From: a virus
Strand: one strand, 5' to 3'
Length of the DNA stretch: 18,055 bases
UHGV virus genome: UHGV-0106651
Under the pieces are notes generated by a model. The model was given only the letters and a program-made list of their open reading frames with translations. It was not told the DNA's origin and did not search any database. Both the position numbers and the translations under genes were made by a program. Every line of letters starts with the position of its first letter. Positions within the stretch are counted from its first letter, which is position 1. Shown here piece after piece: positions 1,048 through 14,426 of the stretch.

Positions 1048-1545
1048 TTAAGCCGGTACGCCGCCAGCGGTACGCCAGACGGTGACCAGTTTTTCCAGTG
1101 AATGCTCACGCTGACCGTAACCGGCTCCCGGCAGGGACGCCCAGATATTGCGACAGCGTGAAATGGCGCGCTCAATGCGTCCCTCCCGGATGTCATCCAG
1201 TGCACCGCGTTCGCGGATCAACTGAATTGCGAGTCTGTCCTGTGACAACGGACTGAAATCCGGCAGGGCAAGCTGTTTGCGGTAATGCGGCCAGAACAGG
1301 TAAAGCTGCTGATAGCGACCGGAGGCCGTGGATTTTTCACCGCGACGGTTAAACACCTTCGCCGGTCGGCCATACGCGAACGGGTGGTCACTGTAGTCGG
1401 TGAAAATTTCCGGCTTCCCGTCCAGTCCGGTGACTATCACGTCATAGCCCCGGTTTTTCGTCAGCGGATGATTCGCCGTCCCTTCGGACACGGCCAGCAT
1501 GTCGAGAAAGGCGGCGATATTCTGATGTGTGTTAATTACCGGCAT
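1048..1545 (-). CDS. K: Endolysin (phage lysozyme), gpK, 165 aa
   Basis: 165-aa ORF starting MPVINTHQNIAAFLDMLAVSEGT, matching remembered P2 gpK in length and in position after the holin. Confidence 0.85.
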   Translation of the reverse strand: MPVINTHQNIAAFLDMLAVSEGTANHPLTKNRGYDVIVTGLDGKPEIFTDYSDHPFAYGRPAKVFNRRGEKSTASGRYQQLYLFWPHYRKQLALPDFSPLSQDRLAIQLIRERGALDDIREGRIERAISRCRNIWASLPGAGYGQREHSLEKLVTVWRTAGGVPA

Positions 1546-1826
1546 TACGGTTTCCCCCTGCCCTTAAAGCGGCGCTGAATGGCAATCTCAATCACCTGAT
1601 AACCGGCGATACCCAGCATGGAGCCAATGCCGCACACCGCAGGCAGTGACAGGTCAGGAAACTGCACCAGAACAACACCGGCAACCATCGAGACAAAACC
1701 ACCAAGCAACATGCGCCCGATAAACAGACGCGGGGTGATGGGTTCACCACCGGCAAGCACCTTGCCGACAACAATCAGCACCCCAATCATGAAAAGCGAC
1801 AGGACGCTTTTTTCTTCTGCTGTCAT
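1545..1826 (-). CDS. Y: Holin gpY, 93 aa
   Basis: Small membrane protein with two to three hydrophobic helices and a charged C-terminus (RRFKGRGKP). Its stop overlaps the K start. Confidence 0.85.
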   Translation of the reverse strand: MTAEEKSVLSLFMIGVLIVVGKVLAGGEPITPRLFIGRMLLGGFVSMVAGVVLVQFPDLSLPAVCGIGSMLGIAGYQVIEIAIQRRFKGRGKP

Positions 1827-1829
1827 GCG

Positions 1830-2033
1830 TTACTCCCACAGATTGACAGTTTCAGCCACGGGCGCGGTCTGAACGTCGGGCAGTTCGACGGCGGTGCCGT
1901 GTGGCAGCACCGCACCCAGTTCAGCCAGTCCCGGATTTGCGGCGAGCACGGTCTCAACCACGCCCTCAGTGCGCCCGTAATACCGGACACAAATGGCGTC
2001 GAGCGTGTCGCCCTGTAGCGCAAAGGTCTTCAT
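1830..2033 (-). CDS. X: Tail protein X (LysM-like), 67 aa
   Basis: Internal ATG at 2031-2033 (reverse complement) gives MKTFALQGDTLDAICVRYYG..., a 67-aa product. Its start overlaps the L stop (TGATG). Confidence 0.8.
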   Translation of the reverse strand: MKTFALQGDTLDAICVRYYGRTEGVVETVLAANPGLAELGAVLPHGTAVELPDVQTAPVAETVNLWE

Positions 2034-2542
2034 CAGATTTGACTCACGATGCAGCGCGGCTTGTCCTGGATGCGCGCCACCGCCCAGCGCATATCCCGCC
2101 ACAGCTCATCAATGGTGCTGTCAATGCTGTCGGCCTTCTTGTCGCCCTTGGCACTGGCATCCACGCCGCGGTAACGCTCATAAAGCGACGCGGTCGCCAT
2201 CGCACACACAGCGCGCTCGTAGTAAAAAACTTTGATGCTTTCACCGTCGATGTCGTCCGCCGGAACGTCCGCCAGACGCGTAAAACCGGCGGCAATTTTC
2301 TGTTCGCGGTACTCGTACAGCTCCGCATTTGTTTCAGCCATGCCTGACTTGATGGCCTCACGCAGACGGGCGGGGGCGACGGTCTGCTCAAGGCGCATAC
2401 GTTCCCGGACGCGCTTCGGGTCGATATCGGGAAAAAAGAACGTGTTTTTAATCACCGGCTCGTCGCCTGCCGGTTGCGGGATGACCACCGTACCCTCACC
2501 GGACACGGGAGCCTCCTTTCGCGGAATAATCAGCGTCATCAT
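2033..2542 (-). CDS. L: Head completion/stabilisation protein gpL, about 169 aa
   Basis: Start placed at the ATG giving MMTLIIPRKEAP, as remembered for P2 gpL. The longer 189-aa track ORF has an N-terminal extension with no matching signal. Confidence 0.8.
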   Translation of the reverse strand: MMTLIIPRKEAPVSGEGTVVIPQPAGDEPVIKNTFFFPDIDPKRVRERMRLEQTVAPARLREAIKSGMAETNAELYEYREQKIAAGFTRLADVPADDIDGESIKVFYYERAVCAMATASLYERYRGVDASAKGDKKADSIDSTIDELWRDMRWAVARIQDKPRCIVSQI

Positions 2543-2641
2543 GACTACCTCTGAAAAGTCGGGCGGTGGACGCCGGTGCAGTGTCAGGTGACTCACCCTC
2601 ACTGACCGACGTGCCGCCCTGGCGCGGGGCGCATTCGGTTG

Positions 2642-3385
2642 TTAACTGGCTTTCTTTTTCGGGCGTCCACGTTTTGCCGGTGTCACGCTCCGGGTCTTAC
2701 GCGGGGTACGGGTGGCCGCTTTTGGCTGCGGCTCCGGCTTCGGTTTCAGCTCCCGCTCCAGTCGTTCAATCTCTTTTTTGACGCCTGCCTGACAGTCGAG
2801 CTGTGTCGCACGTTGCAGGTGCGCCAGCGCACCGGCGGCATCACCACCGTCACGCAGAAACAGACCGGTGATTTTGTGCAGCTTTGCGCGCACTTCATCA
2901 GGCATGTCAGCAGCGGCAGTCAGTTCAAGGGTCTCCGTCAGCAGGCGGGTATCCACAGACTCACCGGCAGCGTGGGCACGCATGGCCGCAAGCGCGACCT
3001 CCTCGGTGAACATGTACGGCGGGGTGCGGCGGTGTTTACCCGGCATGGTCAGACCGTACTTCAGGGCATAACGGGCAATCTCCAGCGCACCGGCAATATC
3101 GCCGGTATCCAGACGCCACAGCATGACCGTCATCAGAATGTCATCCTGTGCACCTTTGCCCTGCTCCAGCACGCCGTTCACCCACGGCAACCAGAACGGC
3201 AGCAGTTCGCGTTTTTTCGCGGCCTTCAGCTCTTTTGAATAAATCGCTTTCAGTGTGCGCTGGTCTGCGGCGAGCTTAACCAGCATCTGCTCATAGACAG
3301 TTGCATGTCGCAGCGGGGCGGCTTCCCGCTGCGCGGTCATCGCTGCCGAGACCCGCATCATGTGGCGCTGTGCGGGACTCGTCAT
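2642..3385 (-). CDS. M: Terminase small (endonuclease) subunit gpM, 247 aa
   Basis: 247-aa product with a basic C-terminal tail (PKKKAS), in the P2 gpM position after N. Confidence 0.85.
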   Translation of the reverse strand: MTSPAQRHMMRVSAAMTAQREAAPLRHATVYEQMLVKLAADQRTLKAIYSKELKAAKKRELLPFWLPWVNGVLEQGKGAQDDILMTVMLWRLDTGDIAGALEIARYALKYGLTMPGKHRRTPPYMFTEEVALAAMRAHAAGESVDTRLLTETLELTAAADMPDEVRAKLHKITGLFLRDGGDAAGALAHLQRATQLDCQAGVKKEIERLERELKPKPEPQPKAATRTPRKTRSVTPAKRGRPKKKAS

Positions 3386-3388
3386 CGG

Positions 3389-4462
3389 TTACGCTCCCGG
3401 CTCTGCGGTCGCTTTAGCCGGTGTGGAGAAGTCACCGACCTTGATTTTTTCCACCAGACAACCGGCGGCGTAGTCTTCCACCACGTAATCAATGTTCATT
3501 GACTCGTAGTTCTCCACGCGGTCGAGTTTCGGGTTTTCCTCAATCACGCGGCGATGGCTGTCATCCATGTAGTAGATGGACAGGTTTTCCAGCTTCGTGA
3601 TGAGCATCGCATCCGCCGGGAAGTACGGGACGCGTACCGCCGGCAGATTACCGATGCGTTTCTGGCTGATGATGACGTCAGCGGCCAGCATTTCGCTGTT
3701 GTCCTGCTCTTTGTTAACGATGGGGAAATACTTGTCCGCCAGTAGCTGACGCCCCACAATCACCACAAGGTCAGGGTCTTCCTGATACCACGGCTCAATC
3801 AGGTTGTTGGTCGCATCCATCACCAGTGCATCAAGGCTGGCATAATCACCGCCCTTACCCACGCGGATAACCTCAGAGGTGGTGTGCCCTTCCTCGTCAG
3901 TGACCTTGCTCATCACGCGCGCCGGTGCTTCATTGCGGTATTTCTGCAGCCAGCCGACCGCCACATCCTGCAGCATCGGATTACTGCTGCGGTCAGAGGT
4001 TTCGGCACGCTTCACGCCGTTAAAACCGGCCATGATGAAATCAAGGGACTGGCGTTTGATAATGGCATTACGGATACGGAGCTGGAAATCCTGATAACGC
4101 GCCCACAGGTCCAGCGTTTTGTAGCGGATATAAAAATCGAAGTTAACCTGGTCGCATTCGTACTTGTTGGACGCCAGCTTCGAGAAGTCCTTCGGCTGAC
4201 GCTCGGTGCCACCGGCGGTGTCGGTGGTGCTGGCAATGGGGCCGGTGACACCGATACCAATTTTTTCCCCTTTCATTTCGCTGACCGGCACAATGTTGAT
4301 GCGGGTCAGAAAGTCAGAGGACTCCTGCATGGTGTTCATCAGGGTCTGGGTGACCGACGGTTCAACGGTGAATTTTTTCGACACATCACCGGCGTCGATG
4401 CCGTTCAGTTCGGCAACACGGGACAGGTAGGCATTAAATTTTAAACGGGTTTCCTGGCGCAT
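3389..4462 (-). CDS. N: Major capsid protein gpN, 357 aa
   Basis: 357-aa product starting MRQETRLKFNAYLSRVAELNG, the same length as P2 gpN, sitting between O and M. Confidence 0.9.
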   Translation of the reverse strand: MRQETRLKFNAYLSRVAELNGIDAGDVSKKFTVEPSVTQTLMNTMQESSDFLTRINIVPVSEMKGEKIGIGVTGPIASTTDTAGGTERQPKDFSKLASNKYECDQVNFDFYIRYKTLDLWARYQDFQLRIRNAIIKRQSLDFIMAGFNGVKRAETSDRSSNPMLQDVAVGWLQKYRNEAPARVMSKVTDEEGHTTSEVIRVGKGGDYASLDALVMDATNNLIEPWYQEDPDLVVIVGRQLLADKYFPIVNKEQDNSEMLAADVIISQKRIGNLPAVRVPYFPADAMLITKLENLSIYYMDDSHRRVIEENPKLDRVENYESMNIDYVVEDYAAGCLVEKIKVGDFSTPAKATAEPGA

Positions 4463-4520
4463 ATTTGTTCCTGAAATTAAGGGTTAATCGTGAAGGTTTT
4501 CCCGGACTGACTGACGCCGG

Positions 4521-5375
4521 TCAGCAGTTCGTCATCAGGGCGTCTCCGCCACCGCCGGTGGCCTTGCTGCGGCGCTGCTGGGTCAGACTTTCGGTGTGGT
4601 CGAGACTGTTTTTCAGGCGGGTGAATGCCTGGCTGGTTTCATCCGCCCTGTCAGTCACCTCCTGCTTAAGTGCGGAAAAGGCGTTTTCCATCTCAGCGAG
4701 GCGCTGCTCAGTGGCGCTCAGTTTTTCCTGCACATGTTCAGCAACAGCGGTCACCGCTTCATGCACGTCATTCAGACGGGCGTCATCGCTGGCCTGTTTG
4801 CGGCCAAAAATGGATTTCACCTTTTCGGTCAGGGCGGTGAACACGGTTTCAGGCAGGTCTTCAAATTCCAGCTCAACGGGCGTTGCCACTGAAATCAGGT
4901 TTTCAGGGCTTAATTTGAAGCGGTTCAGGGGGTTGTGTTTTGCCGTGCGGCAGAATTCCAGATATTCCGTGCCGAGGCTTGCCGGGTCATCGGTGACGGC
5001 CAGCCCCACCAGATAACATTTGCCGGTGTTGGCAAAGTTCGGCTGAATCTCCATTGAGGTGTAGACCTTCTGCGCGGCCTTGTTCATCGCGATAAGGTCA
5101 TCGGTCGGGGTGATTTTCGCAAACAGCGCCCATTTGCCTTTCAGCGCCGAATCATCGTCAATCTTTTCGGCCTTCAGTTCAGCCACATCACCATAACGCT
5201 TAAAAATACCGTCAGGCAGGATGCCGCGCAGATGTTCCAGGTTAATACGGCAACCATAGACACGCGGGTCAAAGGTTTCGGCCATTTCCTGAATATCCTG
5301 CGCACTGATGACACGCCCGTCACAGGTGTCACCCTCAACGCCGATACGAAAGAATTTTGAGACTTTTTTTGCCAT
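4521..5375 (-). CDS. O: Capsid scaffolding protein gpO, 284 aa
   Basis: Start at the ATG giving MAKKVSKFFRIGVEG, preceded by an AGGA ribosome-binding site. The 284-aa length matches P2 gpO; the track ORF is extended by 22 codons upstream. Confidence 0.85.
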   Translation of the reverse strand: MAKKVSKFFRIGVEGDTCDGRVISAQDIQEMAETFDPRVYGCRINLEHLRGILPDGIFKRYGDVAELKAEKIDDDSALKGKWALFAKITPTDDLIAMNKAAQKVYTSMEIQPNFANTGKCYLVGLAVTDDPASLGTEYLEFCRTAKHNPLNRFKLSPENLISVATPVELEFEDLPETVFTALTEKVKSIFGRKQASDDARLNDVHEAVTAVAEHVQEKLSATEQRLAEMENAFSALKQEVTDRADETSQAFTRLKNSLDHTESLTQQRRSKATGGGGDALMTNC

Positions 5376-5548
5376 TGTCAGGAGTCCTGAATAGTGATTA
5401 GAGGAGTCACATGTCGGCATCAGTTTCCCGACGATGCGCATCCTCCGCCATCAGTCCCGGATGGCTTATCACTGACACAACAGCACCTTAGCGAATCGCG
5501 GGGCGCGACTCAGTAGCCTTGCCGTGTATTCATCACGGCGAGGTATTC
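5376..5548. promoter_or_regulatory. Divergent late-promoter region between O (minus) and P (plus)
   Basis: 173-bp intergenic spacer between divergently transcribed capsid and packaging operons, the position of the P_O and P_P late promoters in P2. Exact promoter and activator sites were not resolved by eye. Confidence 0.5.
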
Positions 5549-7321
5549 ATGACCATCACCACAGACACCACTCTTTTACACGACCCGCGTCGTCAGGCGG
5601 CGCTGCTGTACTGGCAGGGGTTTTCCGTGCCGCAGATTGCCGCCATGTTGCAGATGAAACGCCCGACGGTGCAGAGCTGGAAACAGCGCGACGGCTGGGA
5701 CAGCGTTGCTCCCATCAGCCGTGTCGAAATGAGTCTGGAAGCGCGGCTGACCCAGCTCATCATAAAACCGCAGAAAACAGGCGGTGACTTCAAGGAAATT
5801 GACCTGCTCGGACGCCAGATTGAACGACTGGCACGGGTAAACCGCTACAACCAGACCGGCAACGAGGCAGACCTTAATCCGAACATCGCTAACCGCAACA
5901 AAGGCGGGCGGCGCAAACCGAAAAAGAATTTTTTCAGCGACGAGGCTATCGAAAAGCTGGAGCAGATTTTCTTTGAGCAGTCTTTCGAATATCAGTTGCA
6001 CTGGTATCGCGCCGGGCTTGAGCACCGCATCCGCGATATCCTGAAATCCCGCCAGATTGGCGCGACGTTTTATTTTTCCCGCGAGGCGCTGCTGCGCGCC
6101 CTGAAAACCGGTCATAACCAGATTTTTCTGTCGGCCAGTAAAACGCAGGCGTATGTGTTCCGCGAATACATCATCGCCTTTGCCCGGCTGGTTGACGTTG
6201 ACCTGACCGGTGACCCGATTGTCCTGGGCAATAACGGCGCAAAACTGATTTTTCTCGGCACCAACTCCAACACCGCACAGAGCCATAACGGCGACCTGTA
6301 CGTCGACGAGATTTTCTGGATCCCGAATTTTCAGGTACTGCGTAAGGTGGCATCAGGTATGGCCTCACAGAGCCACCTGCGCTCGACCTATTTCTCCACC
6401 CCGTCCACGCTGGCGCACGACGCCTACCCGTTCTGGTCGGGTGAACTGTTTAACCGGGGACGCGCCAGCGCCGCCGAACGCGTGGAAATCGACGTCAGTC
6501 ATAACGCCCTTGCCGGTGGGCTTCTCTGTGCGGACGGCCAGTGGCGACAGATTGTCACCATTGAGGACGCCCTGAAAGGTGGCTGCACGCTGTTCGACAT
6601 TGAGCAGCTCAAACGCGAAAACAGCGCCGACGATTTTAAAAACCTGTTCATGTGTGAATTTGTTGACGACAAGGCGTCGGTGTTCCCGTTCGAGGAGCTG
6701 CAACGCTGCATGGTCGACACGCTGGAAGAATGGGAAGACTATGCACCCTTTGCCGCCAATCCGTTCGGCTCCCGCCCGGTATGGATTGGTTACGACCCGT
6801 CACACCGTGGCGACAGCGCCGGATGCGTGGTACTGGCACCGCCGGTGGTGGCCGGTGGCAAATTCAGAATACTTGAGCGTCACCAGTGGAAAGGCATGGA
6901 CTTTGCCACTCAGGCTGAATCCATCCGCAAACTCACCGAAAAATATAACGTTGAATACATCGGTATTGATGCCACCGGCCTCGGTGTCGGCGTGTTCCAG
7001 CTCGTGCGCTCGTTCTATCCCGCCGCGCGCGACATCCGCTACACGCCGGAAATGAAAACCGCAATGGTGCTCAAGGCAAAAGACGTTATCCGCCGTGGCT
7101 GTCTGGAATATGACGTCAGCGCCACCGACATCACCAGCTCGTTTATGGCTATCCGCAAGACCATGACCAGCAGTGGACGCAGCGCCACCTATGAGGCCAG
7201 CCGCAGCGAGGAAGCCAGCCACGCCGACCTCGCCTGGGCGACCATGCACGCCCTGTTAAATGAGCCACTCACCGCCGGTATCAGCACCCCGCTGACATCC
7301 ACCATTCTGGAGTTTTACTGA
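5549..7321 (+). CDS. P: Terminase large (ATPase) subunit gpP, 590 aa
   Basis: Start at ATG 5549 (MTITTDTTLL) with GAGGT ribosome-binding site 5 nt upstream. 590 aa; stop overlaps the Q start (TGATG). Confidence 0.9.
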   Translation: MTITTDTTLLHDPRRQAALLYWQGFSVPQIAAMLQMKRPTVQSWKQRDGWDSVAPISRVEMSLEARLTQLIIKPQKTGGDFKEIDLLGRQIERLARVNRYNQTGNEADLNPNIANRNKGGRRKPKKNFFSDEAIEKLEQIFFEQSFEYQLHWYRAGLEHRIRDILKSRQIGATFYFSREALLRALKTGHNQIFLSASKTQAYVFREYIIAFARLVDVDLTGDPIVLGNNGAKLIFLGTNSNTAQSHNGDLYVDEIFWIPNFQVLRKVASGMASQSHLRSTYFSTPSTLAHDAYPFWSGELFNRGRASAAERVEIDVSHNALAGGLLCADGQWRQIVTIEDALKGGCTLFDIEQLKRENSADDFKNLFMCEFVDDKASVFPFEELQRCMVDTLEEWEDYAPFAANPFGSRPVWIGYDPSHRGDSAGCVVLAPPVVAGGKFRILERHQWKGMDFATQAESIRKLTEKYNVEYIGIDATGLGVGVFQLVRSFYPAARDIRYTPEMKTAMVLKAKDVIRRGCLEYDVSATDITSSFMAIRKTMTSSGRSATYEASRSEEASHADLAWATMHALLNEPLTAGISTPLTSTILEFY

Positions 7322-8349
7322 TGAGCAAGAAAAAAGGGAAAACACCGCAACCTGCGGCAAAAACAATGACCGCCAGCACCCCGAAAATGGAGGCATTCAC
7401 CTTTGGTGAGCCGGTGCCGGTACTCGACCGCCGTGACATTCTGGATTACGTCGAATGCATCAGTAACGGCAGATGGTATGAGCCGCCGGTCAGCTTTACC
7501 GGGCTGGCAAAAAGCCTGCGTGCTGCCGTGCATCACAGCTCCCCGATTTACGTCAAACGTAATATTCTGGCTTCAACGTTTATCCCGCACCCGTGGCTTT
7601 CCCAGCAGGATTTCAGCCGCTTTGTGCTGGATTTTCTGGTGTTCGGTAATGCGTTTCTGGAAAAGCGTTACAGCACCACCGGTAAGGTCATCAGACTGGA
7701 AACCTCACCGGCAAAATATACCCGTCGTGGCGTGGAGGAGGATGTTTACTGGTGGGTGCCGTCCTTCAACGAGCCGACACCTTTTACGCCCGGCTCCGTG
7801 TTTCACCTGCTGGAGCCCGATATTAATCAGGAGCTGTACGGCCTGCCGGAATATCTCAGCGCCCTCAACTCTGCCTGGCTGAATGAGTCGGCCACGCTGT
7901 TCCGCCGCAAGTATTACGAAAACGGCGCTCATGCCGGATACATCATGTACGTCACTGATGCCGTGCAGGATCGCAACGATATCGAAATGCTCCGCGAAAA
8001 CATGGTGAAGTCGAAAGGCCGCAATAACTTTAAAAATCTGTTTCTCTATGCCCCACAGGGGAAAGCCGACGGCATTAAAATTATCCCGCTCAGTGAAGTG
8101 GCGACGAAGGACGATTTTTTTAATATCAAAAAAGCCAGCGCCGCTGACCTGCTGGACGCGCACCGCATCCCCTTTCAGTTGATGGGTGGCAAGCCGGAGA
8201 ACGTCGGGTCGCTGGGTGATATTGAGAAAGTGGCAAAGGTCTTTGTCCGCAATGAACTTATCCCGTTACAGGACAGGATCCGCGAGATAAACGGCTGGCT
8301 TAGCACAGAGGTTATTCAATTCAAAAATTACTCTTTAGACACCAATTAG
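7321..8349 (+). CDS. Q: Portal protein gpQ, 342 aa
   Basis: 342-aa product immediately downstream of P on the same strand, ending at the edge of the AT-rich cargo, as expected for the cos-proximal portal gene. Confidence 0.9.
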   Translation: MSKKKGKTPQPAAKTMTASTPKMEAFTFGEPVPVLDRRDILDYVECISNGRWYEPPVSFTGLAKSLRAAVHHSSPIYVKRNILASTFIPHPWLSQQDFSRFVLDFLVFGNAFLEKRYSTTGKVIRLETSPAKYTRRGVEEDVYWWVPSFNEPTPFTPGSVFHLLEPDINQELYGLPEYLSALNSAWLNESATLFRRKYYENGAHAGYIMYVTDAVQDRNDIEMLRENMVKSKGRNNFKNLFLYAPQGKADGIKIIPLSEVATKDDFFNIKKASAADLLDAHRIPFQLMGGKPENVGSLGDIEKVAKVFVRNELIPLQDRIREINGWLSTEVIQFKNYSLDTN

Positions 8350-8395
8350 CCCTAGTGATTATACGATAATTAGCCCTAGTATTATCTAGGGCTAA
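8346..8395. repeat. Three copies of TTAGCCCTAG (two direct, one inverted) forming a 10-bp perfect stem-loop; likely bidirectional terminator between convergent Q and the cargo operon
   Basis: TTAGCCCTAG at 8346-8355 (overlapping the Q stop codon) and 8370-8379; reverse complement CTAGGGCTAA at 8386-8395 with a 6-nt loop. A T-run follows on the plus strand at 8411-8417. Confidence 0.6.
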
Positions 8396-8408
8396 CAATT
8401 ATATAATT

Positions 8409-8981
8409 CTATTTTTTCATATTGTATATAACTTCGCAAACACCCGTCAGTGTTAATCGGCTATAATTTTCCAATGTAAACACAGGATAATCATAAAAAA
8501 CCTCAGGTTCTGGCAATGGCGAACGAACAGTTGTTCTTTTATTTGACTGCATCCTCCTCGACAATTTACTTATTACACCAATGTAACCCACCTTTCTTGA
8601 CAAATGCCCATGTAATTTCAATACAGAATATAGCCACTTACAAAAATGAATGCCAGTAACTATCTGTTTAGCGGCACGATTTGAGTTATAAGACTTAAGA
8701 TCTATTACGATAAAATAATCCATATCCCTGTACGACGTAACAAAAATCCCATCACAAACAGAGGATAGCCCAGTTAAGGTTGAAGATTTTAAAAATTTCC
8801 AAACTGGTTTAGATACACTAGTAGAATCTAACGAAAATCCATATACACCATTTCCATTCACCAATAATTTCTTATTAGCAGAACTGGGATTATCTTCGCA
8901 TATGACCCAACATGCCTGCTCCCGTGTTAATTGAAATGCAGGATCGATGCAATTCTGTATTACACTGATAATATTACTCAT
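8409..8981 (-). CDS. Hypothetical 190-aa protein, second gene of the cargo operon; possible small TOPRIM-like nuclease partner (speculative)
   Basis: ATG at 8979-8981 (reverse complement) overlaps the upstream ATPase stop by 8 nt (ATGAGTAA), indicating translational coupling. AT-rich. Contains WVICEDNPS and RDMDYFIVID, loosely resembling the TOPRIM glutamate and DxD motifs; no confident domain call. Confidence 0.6.
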   Translation of the reverse strand: MSNIISVIQNCIDPAFQLTREQACWVICEDNPSSANKKLLVNGNGVYGFSLDSTSVSKPVWKFLKSSTLTGLSSVCDGIFVTSYRDMDYFIVIDLKSYNSNRAAKQIVTGIHFCKWLYSVLKLHGHLSRKVGYIGVISKLSRRMQSNKRTTVRSPLPEPEVFYDYPVFTLENYSRLTLTGVCEVIYNMKK

Positions 8982-10410
8982 CTGCCCCCTCACTATCAGA
9001 GGAGTTTTCTACTAACGAATAATATATTTCATCATTATCATCATTAATGGCGTTAATTACCTCATCAAAAGTTACAGCATGAATTCCTTCATTTGATTTT
9101 TGCATTTCATTTACAGAACCGCCATCAAATAAATAAGCAGCAACCATGTTAGAATCTAAAATTGAGTCGATGCTAATTCCTTGCTTACGCATTACAGTGT
9201 TTCGTTTTTCAATCATATTTTCAGAAACGCCATGAAGCATCATTAAGCTATTGATTTCCTTGACAAAATAATCACTGTGAGTACTAACAACAACCCGAAT
9301 ACCAGAGTTAACTAATTTTGCCAAAAATCTTGCAATTACTCGCTGATTTGACGGGTGTAAATTTAACTCTGGTTCGTCAATCATTAGAATGTCACCAACT
9401 TTTGCTTGATGTTCTAAATAAAACCATAAACCAAACAAACTCTTAACAGTAGATGACGATAAATGAAGATCAATTTTTTTGCTTGCAGGTGTTTTACCTT
9501 TCTTATATGTAGAAAAGTAAATTTGCCCTTCAGGATCAACCGAATATTTCCCTGATATTATTTTTTTTACTTCTTCTGCCAACTTATGAAATTGGCCATT
9601 TTTATTTTTTCTATTTACCTTAATCTCATTTAGCCAGTCTATATAATTTGCTATAGGAGCAGAATATCTTGACTTCATTACATCCATTAACAGTGAATTA
9701 AGATCGAATTGCTCTTTTGAAGCATGATGCAATAATGTAGTTCTTCTAGAGCTTAATTCATTAAAAAAAAGATGCAATCCATTCCTTTCAGCAGGAATTA
9801 AGAAGGCCGGACTTTCATCATGCTCGATTTTTAATAACTGACTTAGAGTCAAATTTATAAACCCGTCTACTCTTGGAAAAACAGAATCTAGCAGCGTCAT
9901 TTGTATGATATTACTGTTTTCATCTTTGGATAATAGCATTACTTCTTTTTTGCCAGTTCCTATGACGAGGCTAACATCCAGTTTTTTTTCATAAACACTT
10001 GATGTTAATGACTCTTCATCAATAACCCAGTCAAATGTTGAATTAGAAAAAATCTCATTATCATTAGTACTAAACACATCCCTCAGCATTAAAGATGAGC
10101 TTTTATTAAACTCTTTTTTAATTAACGTGAAGTTATTTTTTATCCAGTCAATCACATCTAACTCAAACTTGCCATTTTCACGAAGAGTTTTGGCAAAGTT
10201 TGCTACTTGTGGCAATTTTAAAGATGGTGATGGCATATTTAGGAAGCCATATAACCCATACATAACCCATGTTTTACCAGTGTTATTCTTCCCACATAAA
10301 AGAGTTAAAGGTTTTGCATTAATCTCTCCTGCAGAGATACACCCAATATTTTTAAATGAAAACTTCCATGATGCTAATTTACTTACATTAATTTCACTTT
10401 GCTTTTTCAT
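8974..10410 (-). CDS. ABC-type ATPase of the AAA_21/AAA_15 (OLD/SMC-like) kind, 478 aa; first gene of the cargo operon
   Basis: Walker A LLCGKNNTGKT near the N-terminus, signature-like HLSSSTVKSL, Walker B ILMIDEPELNLHP, H-loop VVVSTHSD. Strong ribosome-binding site AAGGAAG 5 nt before the ATG. Roughly one-third GC by eye, against a visibly GC-richer phage backbone. Confidence 0.8.
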   Translation of the reverse strand: MKKQSEINVSKLASWKFSFKNIGCISAGEINAKPLTLLCGKNNTGKTWVMYGLYGFLNMPSPSLKLPQVANFAKTLRENGKFELDVIDWIKNNFTLIKKEFNKSSSLMLRDVFSTNDNEIFSNSTFDWVIDEESLTSSVYEKKLDVSLVIGTGKKEVMLLSKDENSNIIQMTLLDSVFPRVDGFINLTLSQLLKIEHDESPAFLIPAERNGLHLFFNELSSRRTTLLHHASKEQFDLNSLLMDVMKSRYSAPIANYIDWLNEIKVNRKNKNGQFHKLAEEVKKIISGKYSVDPEGQIYFSTYKKGKTPASKKIDLHLSSSTVKSLFGLWFYLEHQAKVGDILMIDEPELNLHPSNQRVIARFLAKLVNSGIRVVVSTHSDYFVKEINSLMMLHGVSENMIEKRNTVMRKQGISIDSILDSNMVAAYLFDGGSVNEMQKSNEGIHAVTFDEVINAINDDNDEIYYSLVENSSDSEGADE

Positions 10411-10670
10411 TGAACTTCCTTAATCAATCACATACAAATAAAGAAGACCATTGTTCATGTGAAAAATCAATACTTTCGATACTATACTAAATGACTACGA
10501 ACAATAGTGCTTCACTCTCCACCAATCCTGATAGGTTAAGATATATGGGCTGTTTTCTCAAACTTGCCGCGCTGTACTGAGCCTCCTGTATAAGTCATTT
10601 AATATAATGCGCATCCTAACTCTGAAACAGTAAGTTTATCTGTGCTACATTTCCGTTTTGCATGCGCGCA

Positions 10671-10689
10671 GTGCTTTCCCCGCCTCGCC
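10671..10689. other. cos: cos site: the 19-nt cohesive-end sequence of P2/186-type phages (present here as the reverse complement)
   Basis: GTGCTTTCCCCGCCTCGCC at 10671-10689 is the exact reverse complement of GGCGAGGCGGGGAAAGCAC, remembered as the P2 cohesive end. It lies between A and Q as expected for a prophage. Confidence 0.8.
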
Positions 10690-10811
10690 CGCCCGCTTCG
10701 CGGGTCACATTTAATGCAGTTGCATAAAGGCGTCAAAACCACACCGGTACTGGCAACAAGTGACCATAAAAACGGCTTTTGGCACATGCAAAACAATGCA
10801 CCTAATGCACG

Positions 10812-10841
10812 CACACAAAAACGGGGAAAGTCGCTTCCCCC
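10812..10841 (-). terminator. Rho-independent terminator downstream of the 174-aa gene
   Basis: On the minus strand, a GGGGAA/TTCCCC stem with a short loop is followed by GTTTTTGTGTG, about 12 nt after the stop of the 10852..11376 ORF. Confidence 0.6.
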
Positions 10842-10851
10842 ACAAACATTA

Positions 10852-11376
10852 TCAACGCACCGGAATGTAAGATTCAAGGTCTCTGATTACGGCTTGTTTC
10901 AGTGCTTCAGATACAGCCTCAAGTTCTGGCAATGCTGGCTTTTCACTTAAGTTCGTTTCGAATTCCCCGCTTCCTATTACTAGCGTAAAGCCATTTCCAT
11001 CACGTAGCAGTTTCAAAGGAATAATCACGTTTAACTTAGGATGAGCAACCGGTGACTTATCCACTGTAAGGCCAATAAAAAATGACAAAATCCCATCTGC
11101 ATCAGGCAACAGATCGTGTAACTGAACTTTAGATTTTTCACCATCTTTAATTGCAGCGACAAAAACATAATTTTCAGTGGGGTTTTGCCCTGGATAGCCC
11201 CAGCAAGTTTGCTCAAGCTCAAGCGACCCCTCAAAGTTTTTCGCAATCAGCCCAACAATATTTTGTAAACGCTCTTTTTCCTCTCTCTGTAACCGAACGA
11301 TTTCAATATACTTATCTCTTATAGTCTGAAAAGTAATCACTTTAATCTCCTGAAACGGTTTACACAGAAACAGCAT
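10852..11376 (-). CDS. Hypothetical protein, 174 aa; orphan cargo gene on the replication-gene side of cos
   Basis: Uninterrupted ORF with a purine-rich stretch (AGGGGG) before the ATG and its own terminator downstream. No recognisable motifs. GC appears intermediate between the backbone and the ATPase operon. Confidence 0.6.
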   Translation of the reverse strand: MLFLCKPFQEIKVITFQTIRDKYIEIVRLQREEKERLQNIVGLIAKNFEGSLELEQTCWGYPGQNPTENYVFVAAIKDGEKSKVQLHDLLPDADGILSFFIGLTVDKSPVAHPKLNVIIPLKLLRDGNGFTLVIGSGEFETNLSEKPALPELEAVSEALKQAVIRDLESYIPVR

Positions 11377-11439
11377 TTAACCCCCTGATAATATTTCTTT
11401 CAATAATTTTCCTAACACCAAACTGCGCTCGTGGTTCAA

Positions 11440-11478
11440 CCCCGCCAGCCCTGAAAACAAGTTTCACGACTGGCGGGG
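11440..11478 (-). terminator. GC-rich stem-loop just downstream of the 68-aa ORF; possible terminator of the A-containing operon
   Basis: CCCCGCCAG (11440-11448) pairs with CTGGCGGGG (11470-11478); the loop contains a nested TGAAA/TTTCA stem. No clean U-tract follows, so terminator function is uncertain. Confidence 0.4.
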
Positions 11479-11482
11479 TTCT

Positions 11483-11689
11483 CTATCGTCTGCGTGGTGC
11501 TGGCATAACTCTGGACTGACTGATATAGCTAAACCGCCCGTAATTATCCCGGACTATTTCGGCACACCCGACTAGCTCATCGGGCGTCAGATTTTCGTTG
11601 ACCATAATCTGCTGTAGACGCTGAACAATGGCCATCAGCTTGGCGCTTTTGGCGTTATGCTGCGGTATCTCGCCTGGTATTCTGTGCAT
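11483..11689 (-). CDS. Hypothetical small protein, 68 aa, translationally coupled to the upstream DUF3850-like gene
   Basis: ATG at 11687-11689 (reverse complement) overlaps the upstream TAA stop as TAATG. The track ORF 11483..11701 has an earlier in-frame ATG; the coupled start is preferred. Confidence 0.45.
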   Translation of the reverse strand: MHRIPGEIPQHNAKSAKLMAIVQRLQQIMVNENLTPDELVGCAEIVRDNYGRFSYISQSRVMPAPRRR

Positions 11690-12141
11690 TATCCAAGCCA
11701 CCCGTTTTGCTGTGCACGCTCCACCTGTTCATCTGAATAGTTCCATGCTCCATCCGTGGCAACCATTGCCCCGCCAGACATCCCCGTCTCTGGTTCATAC
11801 ATAACAGCAAGGCCGAGCTGATGCATAATTTCATGATTAATTCTGAATATCAGGCCACGCTCACTAAGTTCTTTCCAGTTCACAATCTCATATGCACCTG
11901 TATTAAGCAGCTCAATACTTAGCAAGACATAATCTTCCAGCCAGTCTGACAGGTCAGTAACATCTGTTATCCGGGCTTCAACCTTTCGCCCCGTATACAC
12001 ACCCTGCACCCATTCACGCAAAATCAACGTGTCCCGGCGCTCATAATTACGGTCATTTTTCCGAAACTCTGCACGTTTATGTCCTTCCAGCACAAGGTCG
12101 AAATATTTTGCGTGAAGCTTTACCTCGTGAATTTTTGCCAT
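11689..12141 (-). CDS. DUF3850-like (ASCH/PUA-like fold) protein with a C-terminal HExxH-containing extension, 150 aa
   Basis: Start MAKIHEVKLHAKYFDLVLEGHKRAEFRKNDRNYERRDTLILREW resembles the remembered DUF3850 consensus. C-terminal part contains INHEIMHQLG. Its ATG overlaps the A stop (TAATG). Confidence 0.6.
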   Translation of the reverse strand: MAKIHEVKLHAKYFDLVLEGHKRAEFRKNDRNYERRDTLILREWVQGVYTGRKVEARITDVTDLSDWLEDYVLLSIELLNTGAYEIVNWKELSERGLIFRINHEIMHQLGLAVMYEPETGMSGGAMVATDGAWNYSDEQVERAQQNGWLG

Positions 12142-14426
12142 TATGTCCACTCCATTACTGTTGAGAATCCCAGCCACTCATCAGCGACCGGATACGTGAA
12201 TTTTTTCCCGTCGTAATTTACGGTCGCGCCACGCACCAGCGCCTCAAGCTCCCATCGCTGCGGCCTGATACCGTTCTGAGCAAGGTCAACGCGGATACGG
12301 GTGATTTGCAATCGTTCAGACCTGGTCAGTCTGGCAGATGGTGCAATTTCATGCGGTTTTAACGGGATTCCGTTTCTTTGCTGACGATTTGGTGTTCTCA
12401 GTCCGTGTTTTAATGCGCCCCTGAGCGCCATCACGACCTCCGGGTCACTCCATTCGATAACACCGTCATCTACCAGATTAAGCACTGCTGCGGCGTGCTC
12501 AGAAGGTGTGGGAGCCGGTAACGAAGTATCACCACCGGTGAGCTTTCCACAGTTATTGACAGGACTCCGAGGCGCGGCGATGCCGCTTTTTAAAGTCAAA
12601 GGCTCCACGACCGGCACTTTCGGCACAATGCGCCAGTCCGTCGTTCTGGTGATATGAATATGACGCGCGCCGAGATGCGGCGCGTAAATGCCGACCACTC
12701 TCTCGACCTCTTCCTCGTACTCGTTAACGTCATCCGACGAGCTACGGGCAACCCTGACAGTCTGACAATCGCGCGGGACATTTGCCCCACCCTGCGCGCT
12801 GATATACAGCGCAAAATCGCCACTGTCTGCGGCAGCGCGTGCAGCCTCGACGCGTTCGTCAAACTCATCAGCAATGCTGACACCGCGGGGCAATTTGCGT
12901 AGTTCACGGTAAGCCCCCATTGTCGGCAGGCCAACAGTTTTAAATTGTGGGATACGCCACGTTGACGCCCATGCGGTAACAGCCGCAGCAGTATCTTTCA
13001 GTGGCCTGCCGGTATCGTTATCGAGCTGACCATCCAGTGCATAGCCATCGATGTTTTTTGAGATGTATTTCGCGATATACCCCGCAGCACCGCCCCGATT
13101 AAGATGTTTTGCCTGAAAACGGTTTCGCGCGGCTCCTCTTTCGTCGCCATCCTCTTTAAGCGCATAGCGACGCATGATTTCGATAATCTGGTTACGCTGG
13201 CGTGGATTACAAAAAAGCATCATATGCCAGTGCGGCGTTCCGTCGTGGTGTGGCTCGACGACTCGCAAACCGTAGACCTGTAAATCATTATCCTTGAATG
13301 CCGTGCGCATCAGGCTCCAGATGCGGCAGAGATAACGCTGCGCATCCTTTGGATTAAATGCCTCATCGTTCCAGCCGTGATTAAGCTGGACGGTTTTACT
13401 TTCGCCTTTTCTGACCTGACGTGTCGGGTGATACTTTGACGGCGCGGTCAGCGTGATAAACATCCCCACATCACCCTCTGCGGCAGCGTAACGCTCAATA
13501 CCGGCGATGGTGTTCATCAGCTCCATCCGGCGAATTTCTGGATTAGAAATACTGCCCATCACCTTACTGATAAGGTCGATGCGCTCGCCGGTTTCCCTGT
13601 TTTCAAGGTCACACGATTTAAGAAATTCCAGATTTGCCTGGCGGCGCGCACGCACATCACGAATGGCATGTTTACTGGCATAAGGAGAACGGTCTTTATT
13701 GACCTCCCCGACAGCAATCAGTAACGCCTCATGCCAGCGCATACGCTGGCCTTTAAGCTGATGAGTCCACCATTCATCGTTAAACAGACGGGCAATGGCA
13801 GAATATGCCTGCCTCGTGGTCATCTGCCCTTTACGGTATTTTTTCAAGTAGAGCGGGGAAATATTGAAAGCACGTGCAGCGCCAGCAACATGACCATACA
13901 GGTGAGCCTGCGCCTCATCCGTAAACAGCGATTCTTTTTCGCCATGGGCATCCACCCAGGCATCGCAGAGTTCCTCATACATCATGAAAAGCTGCGATGA
14001 GATACGGGCGGCAAATTTTTTCAGCTCCTTGTCATTCATTCCCGGCAGGCGCGCATAGTGGTCACGCTCTGCCAGAAACAGTAACGACGCGTCGGTGTTC
14101 ATTTCATGGCGCTGATTCACGCGCTCAATGCGCGGCCATAAACGACGCTGAAAAGTGGCTGTGAGGAAATAAAACCCGTGCACCGGGCTTTTATTGCGCC
14201 GGATGTAGTCATAGCGTGAAGTAAACAGCGAGCGCAAAAAGTAAGGCAGGCGATTAATCGTGGATAAAACACCTTGCACCTGACGCATCTCGTCACGTGT
14301 AAGGGGTCTTTCGCGCCCGACGGCCTCGCGTGGCGCGTTCCATGCATAAGCACCGGTAAACGTCTCACCGGTGCCTGCGGCAAATGCTGACGGAGGGACA
14401 AAACGCCCGGAGGCTTTAACGGCCAT
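12141..14426 (-). CDS. A: Replication initiation protein gpA (rolling-circle HUH endonuclease), 761 aa
   Basis: Start at the ATG giving MAVKASGRFVPPSAFAAGTGE, 761 aa as in P2 gpA. HUH motif TPHWHMMLF and tyrosine-pair region YIAKYISK are present. Confidence 0.9.
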   Translation of the reverse strand: MAVKASGRFVPPSAFAAGTGETFTGAYAWNAPREAVGRERPLTRDEMRQVQGVLSTINRLPYFLRSLFTSRYDYIRRNKSPVHGFYFLTATFQRRLWPRIERVNQRHEMNTDASLLFLAERDHYARLPGMNDKELKKFAARISSQLFMMYEELCDAWVDAHGEKESLFTDEAQAHLYGHVAGAARAFNISPLYLKKYRKGQMTTRQAYSAIARLFNDEWWTHQLKGQRMRWHEALLIAVGEVNKDRSPYASKHAIRDVRARRQANLEFLKSCDLENRETGERIDLISKVMGSISNPEIRRMELMNTIAGIERYAAAEGDVGMFITLTAPSKYHPTRQVRKGESKTVQLNHGWNDEAFNPKDAQRYLCRIWSLMRTAFKDNDLQVYGLRVVEPHHDGTPHWHMMLFCNPRQRNQIIEIMRRYALKEDGDERGAARNRFQAKHLNRGGAAGYIAKYISKNIDGYALDGQLDNDTGRPLKDTAAAVTAWASTWRIPQFKTVGLPTMGAYRELRKLPRGVSIADEFDERVEAARAAADSGDFALYISAQGGANVPRDCQTVRVARSSSDDVNEYEEEVERVVGIYAPHLGARHIHITRTTDWRIVPKVPVVEPLTLKSGIAAPRSPVNNCGKLTGGDTSLPAPTPSEHAAAVLNLVDDGVIEWSDPEVVMALRGALKHGLRTPNRQQRNGIPLKPHEIAPSARLTRSERLQITRIRVDLAQNGIRPQRWELEALVRGATVNYDGKKFTYPVADEWLGFSTVMEWT

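Follow-up and report, generated by a model that had tools for sequence, protein, structure and literature searches.

A probable PD-T4-4-family anti-phage defence operon in the Q-cos interval of a P2-like Escherichia coli prophage

Introduction

PD-T4-4 (Vassallo et al. 2022) is a two-gene defence system of Escherichia coli ECOR58 (RCO57999.1 and RCO57988.1, accessions from Table S2 of that paper), which is described as "ATPase, nuclease" and was validated against phage T4; its phage protection has been reproduced, with two independent studies now reporting it. The second component, PD-T4-4_B, has been modelled as a PD-(D/E)xK protein in the earlier literature, whereas one preprint describes the effector as an HNH nuclease, which conflicts both with the remaining papers and with our fold assignment. 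In PADLOC, the system is represented by the models PDLC04032-04037.

The sole mechanistic data for systems that combine an ATPase with a PD-(D/E)xK nuclease come from WonAB (AWB73975.1 and AWB73976.1), which is encoded in the WASA-1 prophage of V. cholerae and is grouped with PD-T4-4 by the authors who described it (Adams et al. 2025). Each of the two genes and each active site is required; WonA is needed for WonB to be toxic, and defence is abortive and proceeds via inhibition of translation. WonB is toxic when overproduced and non-toxic in the absence of WonA or of WonA ATPase activity, and RNA needed for translation has been proposed as its target. In an ABC-ATPase survey that is cited by Adams et al. 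(2025), operons of this kind appear as "OLD-ABC ATPase + novel REase".

The gpA-gpQ region of P2 is a known hotspot, and the P2 old gene sits in this same cos-proximal hotspot. Here, we analyse a gene pair at this position in the viral genome UHGV-0106651, of which the whole stretch of 18,055 nucleotides is referred to as the window.

The inserted segment and its boundaries

A BLASTN comparison with the P2-like phage KC618326, which lacks the cassette, reveals that homology ends at position 8342 and restarts at 10664, and that approximately 2.3 kb in the window takes the place of approximately 175 bp separating cos from the end of Q. The inserted segment defined by this comparison and by the GC profile (8343..10663, no strand) is AT-rich, with a GC content of 0.30-0.36 in windows over 8400-10600 versus 0.55-0.59 in the P and Q genes. 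The left boundary is formed by the portal gene Q (7321..8349, plus strand), an ORF convergent with the second gene of the cassette and annotated as "phage portal protein" in the RefSeq record of the identical prophage of strain UTAK-5. At the right boundary, the 19-mer GGCGAGGCGGGGAAAGCAC is found as an exact match on the minus strand (10671..10689; chance expectation, 0 matches), which we take to be the P2 cohesive end; 24 P2-like phage records share an identical stretch of 36-37 nt at 10664-10700, which is consistent with this identity. In an E. coli W prophage, the cassette and cos occur as one contiguous module with 86.9% identity over positions 8201-10726.

These comparisons support the view that the cassette is a two-gene unit that a P2-like E. 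coli prophage acquired horizontally in its cos-proximal variable region. The exact locus (WP_052918735 and WP_072126211) and the E. coli W variant both already appear in Rousset et al. (2022), a survey of the P2 hotspot whose supplement lists the arrangements of genes from gpA to gpQ. An earlier reading of the same DNA, made from the letters alone and referred to below as the sequence-only reading, had described an AT-rich cassette in a GC-richer backbone, bracketed by a hairpin and cos and located in a defence hotspot, and each of these points is borne out.

The hairpin lies between the two convergent genes (8370..8395, no strand) and was identified by direct reading of the sequence and by RNA folding. 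It reads TTAGCCCTAG-ATAATA-CTAGGGCTAA, with a perfect 10-bp stem that extends to 11 pairs in the RNA fold, and the 76-nt region has a folding energy of -25.2 kcal/mol (z = -4.9), a stability reached by 0 of 200 shuffled sequences. A simple terminator scan makes no call at this hairpin because no T-run follows the stem; the hairpin is nevertheless likely to function as a bidirectional terminator. An extra copy of the 10-mer TTAGCCCTAG is located at 8346-8355, where it overlaps the Q stop codon.

Upstream of the cassette, and still inside the inserted segment, direct reading of the sequence reveals a non-coding region (10411..10663, minus strand) and a Shine-Dalgarno sequence, AAGGAAG, ahead of the first ATG of the operon. 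The promoter scan detects no consensus sigma-70 site on the minus strand of this region, and its counts over 8200-11600 are no higher than in shuffled sequence. A terminator-like hairpin further upstream (10821-10843, minus strand) argues against read-through from the A-side genes, and the cassette presumably possesses its own promoter within 10411..10663.

The ATPase

The first gene, hereafter gene A (8974..10410, minus strand, ORF from ATG), encodes an OLD-type ABC ATPase of 478 aa that belongs to the PD-T4-4_A family and is named "AAA family ATPase" in RefSeq. All of the ABC-ATPase motifs are intact: CGKNNTGKT (Walker A, G40-K46-T47), LSSSTVKSL (signature, S319-S324), ILMIDEPE (Walker B, D345-E346-P347-E348) and STHS (H-loop, H378). 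In an alignment of 37 family sequences, the invariant columns are G40, K46 and T47, S319, S320, K323 and S324, D345, P347 and E348, and H378, which confirms the complete motif set that had been read from the letters. A C-terminal extension (residues ~425-462) is conserved as well. The protein is 45-50% identical to many gamma-proteobacterial homologues, and phrog_13167 among the PHROGs matches it over its full length.

When the PADLOC models are used as single profiles, the PD-T4-4_A model PDLC04033 matches gene A with an E-value of 1.6e-111 (372 bits), and residues 16-466 align with positions 2-458 of the 460 in the model. A second PD-T4-4_A sub-model, PDLC04032, also matches (1.8e-56). Additionally, weaker matches are obtained to AriA (1e-29), Old (5.7e-15), GajA and AbiLi, of which those to Old and GajA are confined to the Walker B/H-loop region (residues ~335-390). 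In Pfam, AAA_15 (4.5e-26) and AAA_21 (2.6e-15) both score above their gathering thresholds. The closest solved relative by sequence is 6p74, a class-1 OLD protein (1.6e-6).

The Walker B/H-loop region also gives weak local matches to transporter ATPases and UvrA, as might be found if gene A encoded the ATPase of an ABC transporter, or an ABC protein of the UvrA/SbcC type acting in DNA repair, that happened to precede an unrelated small ORF. However, these matches span only ~50 residues with scores far short of the family cut-offs, neither a permease nor a membrane partner is present, and the small ORF accompanies the ATPase as a conserved, co-linear gene in 75 of 78 species, which leaves this explanation with a negligible probability.

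The partner nuclease

The second gene, hereafter gene B (8409..8981, minus strand), encodes a 190-aa protein of the PD-T4-4_B family. The ORF as a whole (8409..8993, minus strand) would give 194 aa from a GTG codon, and the ATG at 8981, from which the protein has 190 aa, is the start used by RefSeq, where the product is a "hypothetical protein". The junction of the two genes reads ...GCAGATGAGTAATATT..., in which the ATG of gene B and the TAA stop of gene A overlap by 8 nt (ATGAGTAA), as the sequence-only reading had reported, and a GAGGGGG Shine-Dalgarno sequence is located directly upstream of this ATG. Through this 8-nt overlap, gene B is translationally coupled to gene A.

The PADLOC PD-T4-4_B model PDLC04037 matches gene B with an E-value of 5.3e-12 and a modest score of 43.9 bits, and residues 3-153 align with positions 4-158 of 190, which corresponds to a coverage of ~80% of both the protein and the model. 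The E. coli W orthologue matches the PD-T4-4_B model with an E-value of 1.7e-15. Across 93 aligned representatives of the B family, D77 is present in 93/93, position 94 is occupied by D or E in 93/93, K96 is found in 91/93 and Q106 in 92/93; the predicted catalytic residues of gene B are D77, D94, K96 and Q106.

A structural model of gene B was predicted with AF2 from the alignment of 93 sequences (pLDDT 93.9), which replaced a poor model obtained from only eight sequences (pLDDT 58.9). The model resembles the nuclease domains of McrC, Can2, FokI and NucS, and no TOPRIM protein is found among the matches; in the Foldseek search against the PDB, no match is significant, and the weak matches are enriched in restriction endonucleases. 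The conserved motif and the predicted model both indicate that gene B contains a PD-(D/E)xK catalytic core, that is, a restriction-endonuclease fold.

The sequence-only reading had seen weak TOPRIM-like motifs in the partner and a layout resembling split OLD, RloAB, AbiL or PARIS, in which the ABC ATPase would act with a short degenerate TOPRIM nuclease of the AriB/DUF4435 type. The OLD-type core of gene A, its weaker matches to AriA, Old, GajA and AbiLi, the proximity to 6p74 and a genome position shared with P2 old would all suit such a system. The evidence from the partner points elsewhere: at E <= 1, gene B has no match to DUF4435, a Toprim family, DUF3226 or DUF4276 in Pfam and none to AriB, Old or GajA in PADLOC, its motif is D...(D/E)xK rather than E...DxD, and its model matches restriction-endonuclease folds. 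Thus, of the Pfam families that the sequence-only reading had named, AAA_15 and AAA_21 are found in gene A and the four partner families are not found in gene B. Additionally, the PD-T4-4_A match of gene A exceeds its AriA match by ~80 orders of magnitude in E-value, and gene A stops at residue 478 without a TOPRIM domain. A split OLD-, PARIS- or AbiL-like system is therefore extremely unlikely.

On this profile and fold evidence, the TOPRIM/PARIS/AbiL reading was rejected. The pair does not belong to PARIS, as the partner has no DUF4435, TOPRIM or AriB signal and AriA is not the best match of the ATPase, nor to OLD or Gabija (GajA), as TOPRIM is neither fused to the ATPase nor present in the partner. 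What is shared with P2 Old, GajA and PARIS AriAB is the OLD-type ABC ATPase core (AAA_15/AAA_21), whereas the effector fold differs, with PD-(D/E)xK here and TOPRIM or DUF4435 in those systems, and gene A matches those families at E-values weaker by 80 or more orders of magnitude than its PD-T4-4_A match.

Membership in the PD-T4-4 family

The linkage of the two genes was assessed in 78 loci collected with the gene A alignment as the query, and in 75 of these loci, which are from different species, A is located upstream of B, adjacent and co-oriented. A B homologue of 183-186 aa lies directly downstream of the ATPase in Acinetobacter, Vibrio and Aeromonas, and the A-B linkage is strict across phyla. 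Relatives of the pair are also essentially the sole cargo of 4-5-kb ColE1-type plasmids in E. coli and Klebsiella.

The locus has the components of PD-T4-4 in the expected order, namely an ATPase with a full-length match to the PD-T4-4_A profile and, downstream with an 8-nt overlap, an adjacent and co-oriented partner that matches the PD-T4-4_B profile at a modest score. As in PD-T4-4, an ATPase of ~460-478 aa is followed by a nuclease of ~190 aa, the operons are of similar size (2002 bp here versus 1973 bp in ECOR58), each resides on an E. coli mobile element, and the PD-(D/E)xK effector found here is of the class modelled for PD-T4-4_B. The validated system resides in an ICE-like element, whereas the pair described here resides in a P2 prophage. 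The proteins were compared with those of PD-T4-4 through profiles, and membership is accordingly established at the profile level.

Within the family, the broad models PDLC04033 (372 bits) and PDLC04037 (44 bits) are the only ones that the pair fits, whereas PDLC04032 and PDLC04035 are fitted by other relatives from E. coli and Vibrio with scores of up to 768 and 313 bits, respectively. An alignment-based homologue search returned 44 matches, none of which is a canonical-type E. coli protein. Ten 190-aa representatives sampled in PADLOC include the core-like members P0235 and P0237 and no seed-level member, and none of the accessions retrieved for the clusters of core-like representatives is from E. 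coli. Gene B is 29% identical to P0235 over 158 aa. Judged by sequence, the pair is a diverged sub-clade of PD-T4-4 with predicted defence activity.

The modest match of gene B (44 bits, 29% identity to the core-like member) could instead signify a truly new defence system, in which a generic ABC ATPase is shared and the PD-T4-4_B match reflects distant superfamily similarity. Gene B is in addition a "hypothetical protein" that itself has no Pfam match; no Pfam family matches more than one of 76 family members at E <= 0.1, NCBIfam has no matching family, and the gene B profile has no match to PDB sequences even at E <= 10. However, profile searches connect gene B to 137 representative clusters in an unbroken series, and 91 of the 93 aligned B-family representatives match the PD-T4-4_B model with scores that run continuously up to 4.7e-86. 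Length, catalytic columns and location downstream of the ATPase are uniform across the B family, and gene A matches PD-T4-4_A end to end, which makes a new system quite improbable.

The cassette is thus very probably a PD-T4-4-family operon of two genes that serves in anti-phage defence and that a P2-like E. coli prophage carries as accessory cargo in the interval from Q to cos, with A as the ATPase and B as the PD-(D/E)xK nuclease; a proposed mechanism is outlined below. The sequence-only reading was right to see an anti-phage defence system, which is the best reading of the cassette. Its suggestion of a divergent or undescribed variant has to be given up, as both proteins match PADLOC models of a named and validated system, A along its full length and B along ~80% of it. 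A full-length match of the pair to a named system was among the outcomes that the sequence-only reading had itself set as refuting, and this outcome is reached fully for A and largely for B. The cassette belongs to an already named system family and opens no new mechanism.

Discussion

WonAB resembles the pair described here in being a prophage-borne two-gene operon that combines an OLD-type ABC ATPase with a PD-(D/E)xK nuclease. Differences are apparent in size and motif spacing: WonB (~16 kDa, catalytic K71) is ~50 residues shorter than gene B (190 aa, K96), and the motif positions of WonA (K34, E300 and H333) indicate shorter inserts than in gene A (K46, E346 and H378). The comparison is one of architecture, fold class and motif positions, and WonB may not be orthologous to B.

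By analogy with WonAB and with nuclease-NTPase systems generally, A may dimerise around ATP in the lysogen and hold or license B in a complex. A cue from an infecting phage would alter the ATPase cycle of A, upon which the nuclease B would become active and cut nucleic acid. Its target may be DNA, either of the phage or of the host, or an RNA needed for translation, in line with the proposal for WonB. Infection would then be halted, and the infected cell would probably be lost with it (abortive infection). Complex formation, trigger and substrate are all extrapolated from these systems, as is a mode of protection that is abortive and not direct.

The toxicity of overproduced WonB could also suggest a toxin-antitoxin or addiction module that stabilises the prophage or plasmid, with B as the toxin, A as its antidote and no real anti-phage role, and both the Pfam label of AAA_21 ("putative AbiEii toxin, type IV TA system") and the small ColE1-type plasmids on which relatives are nearly the only cargo would agree with this. 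However, WonB is harmless when WonA or its ATPase activity is missing, and this dependence of toxicity on WonA rules out simple sequestration in WonAB. Carriage on small plasmids fits mobile defence cargo equally well, and the phage protection by PD-T4-4 in two independent studies likewise favours defence, so that an addiction module has little probability.

For the defence operon favoured here, the divergence of the nuclease, which is only ~29% identical to a core-like PD-T4-4_B member, makes a different trigger or substrate possible. It is conceivable, although rather unlikely, that the fast-evolving enterobacterial P2-borne sub-clade (ATPase 45-50% and nuclease ~29% identity) answers a different phage trigger than the ECOR58 type or cuts a different substrate, for example RNA, as with WonB. 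Separately, and as speculatively, the position on the Q side, which is also that of the E. coli W module, could represent a second cargo slot, exchanged jointly with cos and separate from the classical A-side old/tin slot.

The main value of the finding lies in annotation. Both gene families are of "unknown function" in PHROGs, and the RefSeq names "AAA family ATPase" and "hypothetical protein" could be replaced by that of a PD-T4-4-type ABC-ATPase/PD-(D/E)xK nuclease defence pair. Relatives of PD-T4-4 are carried by P2-like phages of E. coli and Vibrio, by ICE-like elements and by tiny ColE1-type plasmids, and PD-T4-4 becomes one more named system in the cargo of the P2 cos-proximal hotspot.

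Organization and location of the cassette

The gene content and order of the window are those of a P2-like prophage of E. coli, with the order P (terminase) → Q (portal) → hairpin ← B ← A ← cos ← three small ORFs ← replication gene A. The two ORF calls in the cassette, the 478-aa ATPase (gene A, 8974..10410, minus strand) and its 190-aa partner (gene B, 8409..8981, minus strand, counted from the ATG), agree with the CDS in RefSeq, which likewise annotates both in an identical prophage. The gene A stop and the gene B ATG share 8 nt (ATGAGTAA), and a GAGGGGG Shine-Dalgarno sequence is present 5' of this ATG. The GC content is 0.30-0.36 over 8400-10600, compared with 0.55-0.59 in the adjoining P and Q genes. 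A hairpin (TTAGCCCTAG/ATAATA/CTAGGGCTAA, 8370-8395) is present between Q and B, in a region that folds much more stably than shuffled sequence (z = -4.9). There are three copies of the 10-mer TTAGCCCTAG: those at 8346-8355, where the stop codon of Q is overlapped, and at 8370-8379 are direct and that at 8386-8395 is inverted, so that two alternative hairpins are possible. The cos 19-mer (10671-10689, minus strand), an exact match with no chance expectation that we take to be the P2 cohesive end, lies within 36-37 nt that 24 P2-like phages share without a mismatch. The sequence-only reading, an AT-rich two-gene cassette bracketed by a hairpin and cos, is borne out by these features.

In a comparison with KC618326, which is P2-like and lacks the cassette, homology breaks off at 8342 and restarts at 10664, which indicates that approximately 2.3 kb of AT-rich DNA replaces approximately 175 bp from the end of Q to cos and that the final Q codons derive from the inserted segment. 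Because the cassette (8343-10663) lies between Q and cos, it occupies the very terminus of the linear DNA that is packaged. The cassette is present in 19 of 5426 complete E. coli genomes; 3 copies are identical and 16, including those of E. coli W and LY180, are approximately 87% identical and occupy the same location. Cassette and cos form one contiguous block common to E. coli W (86.9% identity, 8201-10726). In KC618326, the cargo cdtABC is located between cos and A, as are old and tin in P2. The location of the cassette is the gpA-gpQ, cos-proximal region known as a hotspot (Rousset et al. 2022; Vassallo et al. 2022), and the earlier suggestion of a defence hotspot was right in kind.

On the A-gene side of cos, a second low-GC patch (0.39-0.45) contains a 174-aa ORF (10852-11376, minus strand) with a terminator-like hairpin after it (10821-10843, minus strand). 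This ORF has no match in Pfam, PADLOC or NCBIfam, matches only phrog_5091 (unknown function) at 1.7e-13, and may represent another cargo gene, independent of the cassette, in the classical old/tin position. Two further small accessory genes are found between this ORF and replication gene A (11483-12177, minus strand): a 72-aa ORF (phrog_11386, unknown function) and a gene for an ASCH/DUF3850 + DUF7415 protein (Pfam, 8e-17 and 2.3e-14; phrog_1812).

Conserved motifs and profile matches of the ATPase

Gene A matches the Pfam families AAA_15 (4.5e-26) and AAA_21 (2.6e-15). In a 37-sequence family alignment, the ABC-ATPase motifs that had been recognized from the sequence alone are all kept, namely Walker A (G40, K46 and T47), the signature (S319, S320, K323 and S324), Walker B (D345, P347 and E348, with E346 nearly invariant) and the H-loop residue H378, as is a P206-x-E208-R209 element. 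Given the conservation of all nucleotide-binding motifs, the gene A protein should be an active ABC ATPase. Its best match in PADLOC-DB is PD-T4-4_A (PDLC04033, E 1.6e-111), with an end-to-end alignment. The next matches are to PDC-M47A, to another PD-T4-4_A model and to AriA, the last at only 1e-29. Old, GajA, PtuA and AbiLi match around the Walker B/H-loop region only, and the closest solved structure by sequence, the class-1 OLD protein 6p74, scores only 1.6e-6. A transporter or DNA-repair ATPase would find its basis only in local Walker B similarity.

The partner is a predicted nuclease

Gene B has no match in Pfam, NCBIfam or PDB sequences, and it matches the PADLOC model PD-T4-4_B (PDLC04037, E 5.3e-12) over approximately 80% of both protein and model. 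A word-indexed search recovers close enterobacterial relatives only, and an exhaustive profile search recovers 137 representative clusters, nearly all of them standalone proteins of 180-200 aa. In a 93-sequence alignment of this family, D77 is invariant, position 94 is E or D throughout, and K96 and Q106 are kept in 91 and 92 sequences, respectively; this pattern conforms to the classic D...(D/E)xK signature. The AlphaFold2 model built from the same alignment (pLDDT 93.9, pTM 0.90) is a confident one and places D77 and D94-x-K96 on neighbouring strands, after which comes a long helix bearing Q106. A Foldseek search with this model gives no significant match, and the weak matches are enriched in restriction endonucleases. 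Taken together, the conserved motif, the model and these weak matches indicate that gene B encodes a divergent nuclease of the restriction-endonuclease fold and not a TOPRIM protein. The split-OLD, PARIS or TOPRIM architecture proposed from sequence is contradicted by both profile and fold evidence, PD-T4-4_A being the best match of the ATPase.

Linkage of the two genes

ATPase homologues from Acinetobacter, Vibrio and Aeromonas (45-50% identity to gene A) carry a B homologue of 183-186 aa directly 3', that of Acinetobacter being 39% identical to gene B. Relatives of gene A number at least 597 in species-representative genomes. Among the best 80 of these loci, 78 have room downstream, and in 75 of the 78 a B-family ORF follows immediately on the same strand, in Proteobacteria, Campylobacterota, Cyanobacteria, Clostridia, Latescibacterota and others. 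This linkage across phyla, together with the translational coupling, shows that genes A and B form a functional pair. The remaining three loci (L036, L040 and L067) have no recognizable B-family ORF downstream, which might reflect an effector swap. Another locus, L046, has two B-family ORFs approximately 1.3 kb apart (5133-5735 and 7076-7690).

Relationship to PD-T4-4 and WonAB

PD-T4-4, a system of E. coli ECOR58 that was found through functional selection on T4, is annotated as "ATPase, nuclease" and was validated under its native promoter (Vassallo et al. 2022). A second study reproduced the T4 protection and classed the effector as PD-(D/E)xK and the accessory protein as a P-loop NTPase. 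The operons are of similar span (1973 bp for the PD-T4-4 ORFs, 2002 bp for the window pair). Adams et al. (2025) modelled PD-T4-4_B as PD-(D/E)xK and placed the system with WonAB and "OLD-ABC ATPase + novel REase" operons. The effector is given as PD-(D/E)xK in PMC12137116 and 10.1101/2025.07.10.664194 and as an HNH nuclease in a preprint (bioRxiv 10.64898/2026.07.10.737580); the HNH label does not fit gene B of the window, which is clearly predicted to be PD-(D/E)xK.

By profiles, the window system is assigned as a diverged member of the PD-T4-4/OLD-ABC-plus-REase family. The window pair fits the broad models only (PDLC04033, 372 bits; PDLC04037, 44 bits), whereas pairs from small plasmids and Vibrio phage 1.202.O reach up to 768 and 313 bits with PDLC04032 and PDLC04035. 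P0235, a core-like PDLC04037 member (136 bits), is 29% identical to gene B over 158 residues. The window pair is a separate sub-clade within the PD-T4-4 family. A truly new system is unlikely, because the members of the B family grade into one another and the PD-T4-4_B model is matched by 91 of 93 representatives.

In their supplementary table, Rousset et al. give the exact arrangement WP_052918729 + ... + WP_072126211 + WP_052918735 + WP_052918731, as well as the pair of E. coli W (WP_000744812 + WP_001350078), under the label "AAA_15/AAA_15/AAA_21 + hypothetical"; the locus is absent from the list of systems tested in the main text. The locus is already catalogued and the system already named, and the suggestion that it was undescribed does not hold.

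Vibrio phage 1.202.O, a P2-like member of the Peduoviridae, also has a PD-T4-4-type pair (2501-4532; A against PDLC04032, 614 bits; B against PDLC04035, 63 bits), located between repressor and integrase and thus at another cargo site within this phage family. Such a pair is the main cargo of small ColE1/Rop-type plasmids of 4-5 kb from E. coli (pSCU-105-5, 1352-3350, and pCUVM53-4, 497-2555) and of Klebsiella plasmids of approximately 4.26 kb. Identity to the window ATPase is 25-31%, and the pair of pCUVM53-4 scores near seed level (PDLC04032, 768 bits; PDLC04035, 313 bits).

Proposed mode of action

The analysis shows an intact ABC ATPase, an intact PD-(D/E)xK nuclease, obligatory genetic linkage, and AT-rich cargo in a known defence hotspot. 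In WonAB, neither gene and neither active site is dispensable for defence, the toxicity of WonB depends on active WonA, and defence is abortive without lysis, with genomic DNA intact and translation stopped. By analogy, an ATP-bound A dimer would bind B, a phage-derived cue would alter the ATPase cycle of A, and B would then be licensed to cut nucleic acid, either DNA or RNA, which would abort the infection. Carriage of relatives on tiny plasmids would suit a pure addiction module, but the genetics of WonAB and the phage phenotypes of PD-T4-4 speak against this role. The remaining interest of the cassette lies in how far its sub-clade has diverged and in its location on the Q side of cos; the classical slot of old and tin is on the A side.
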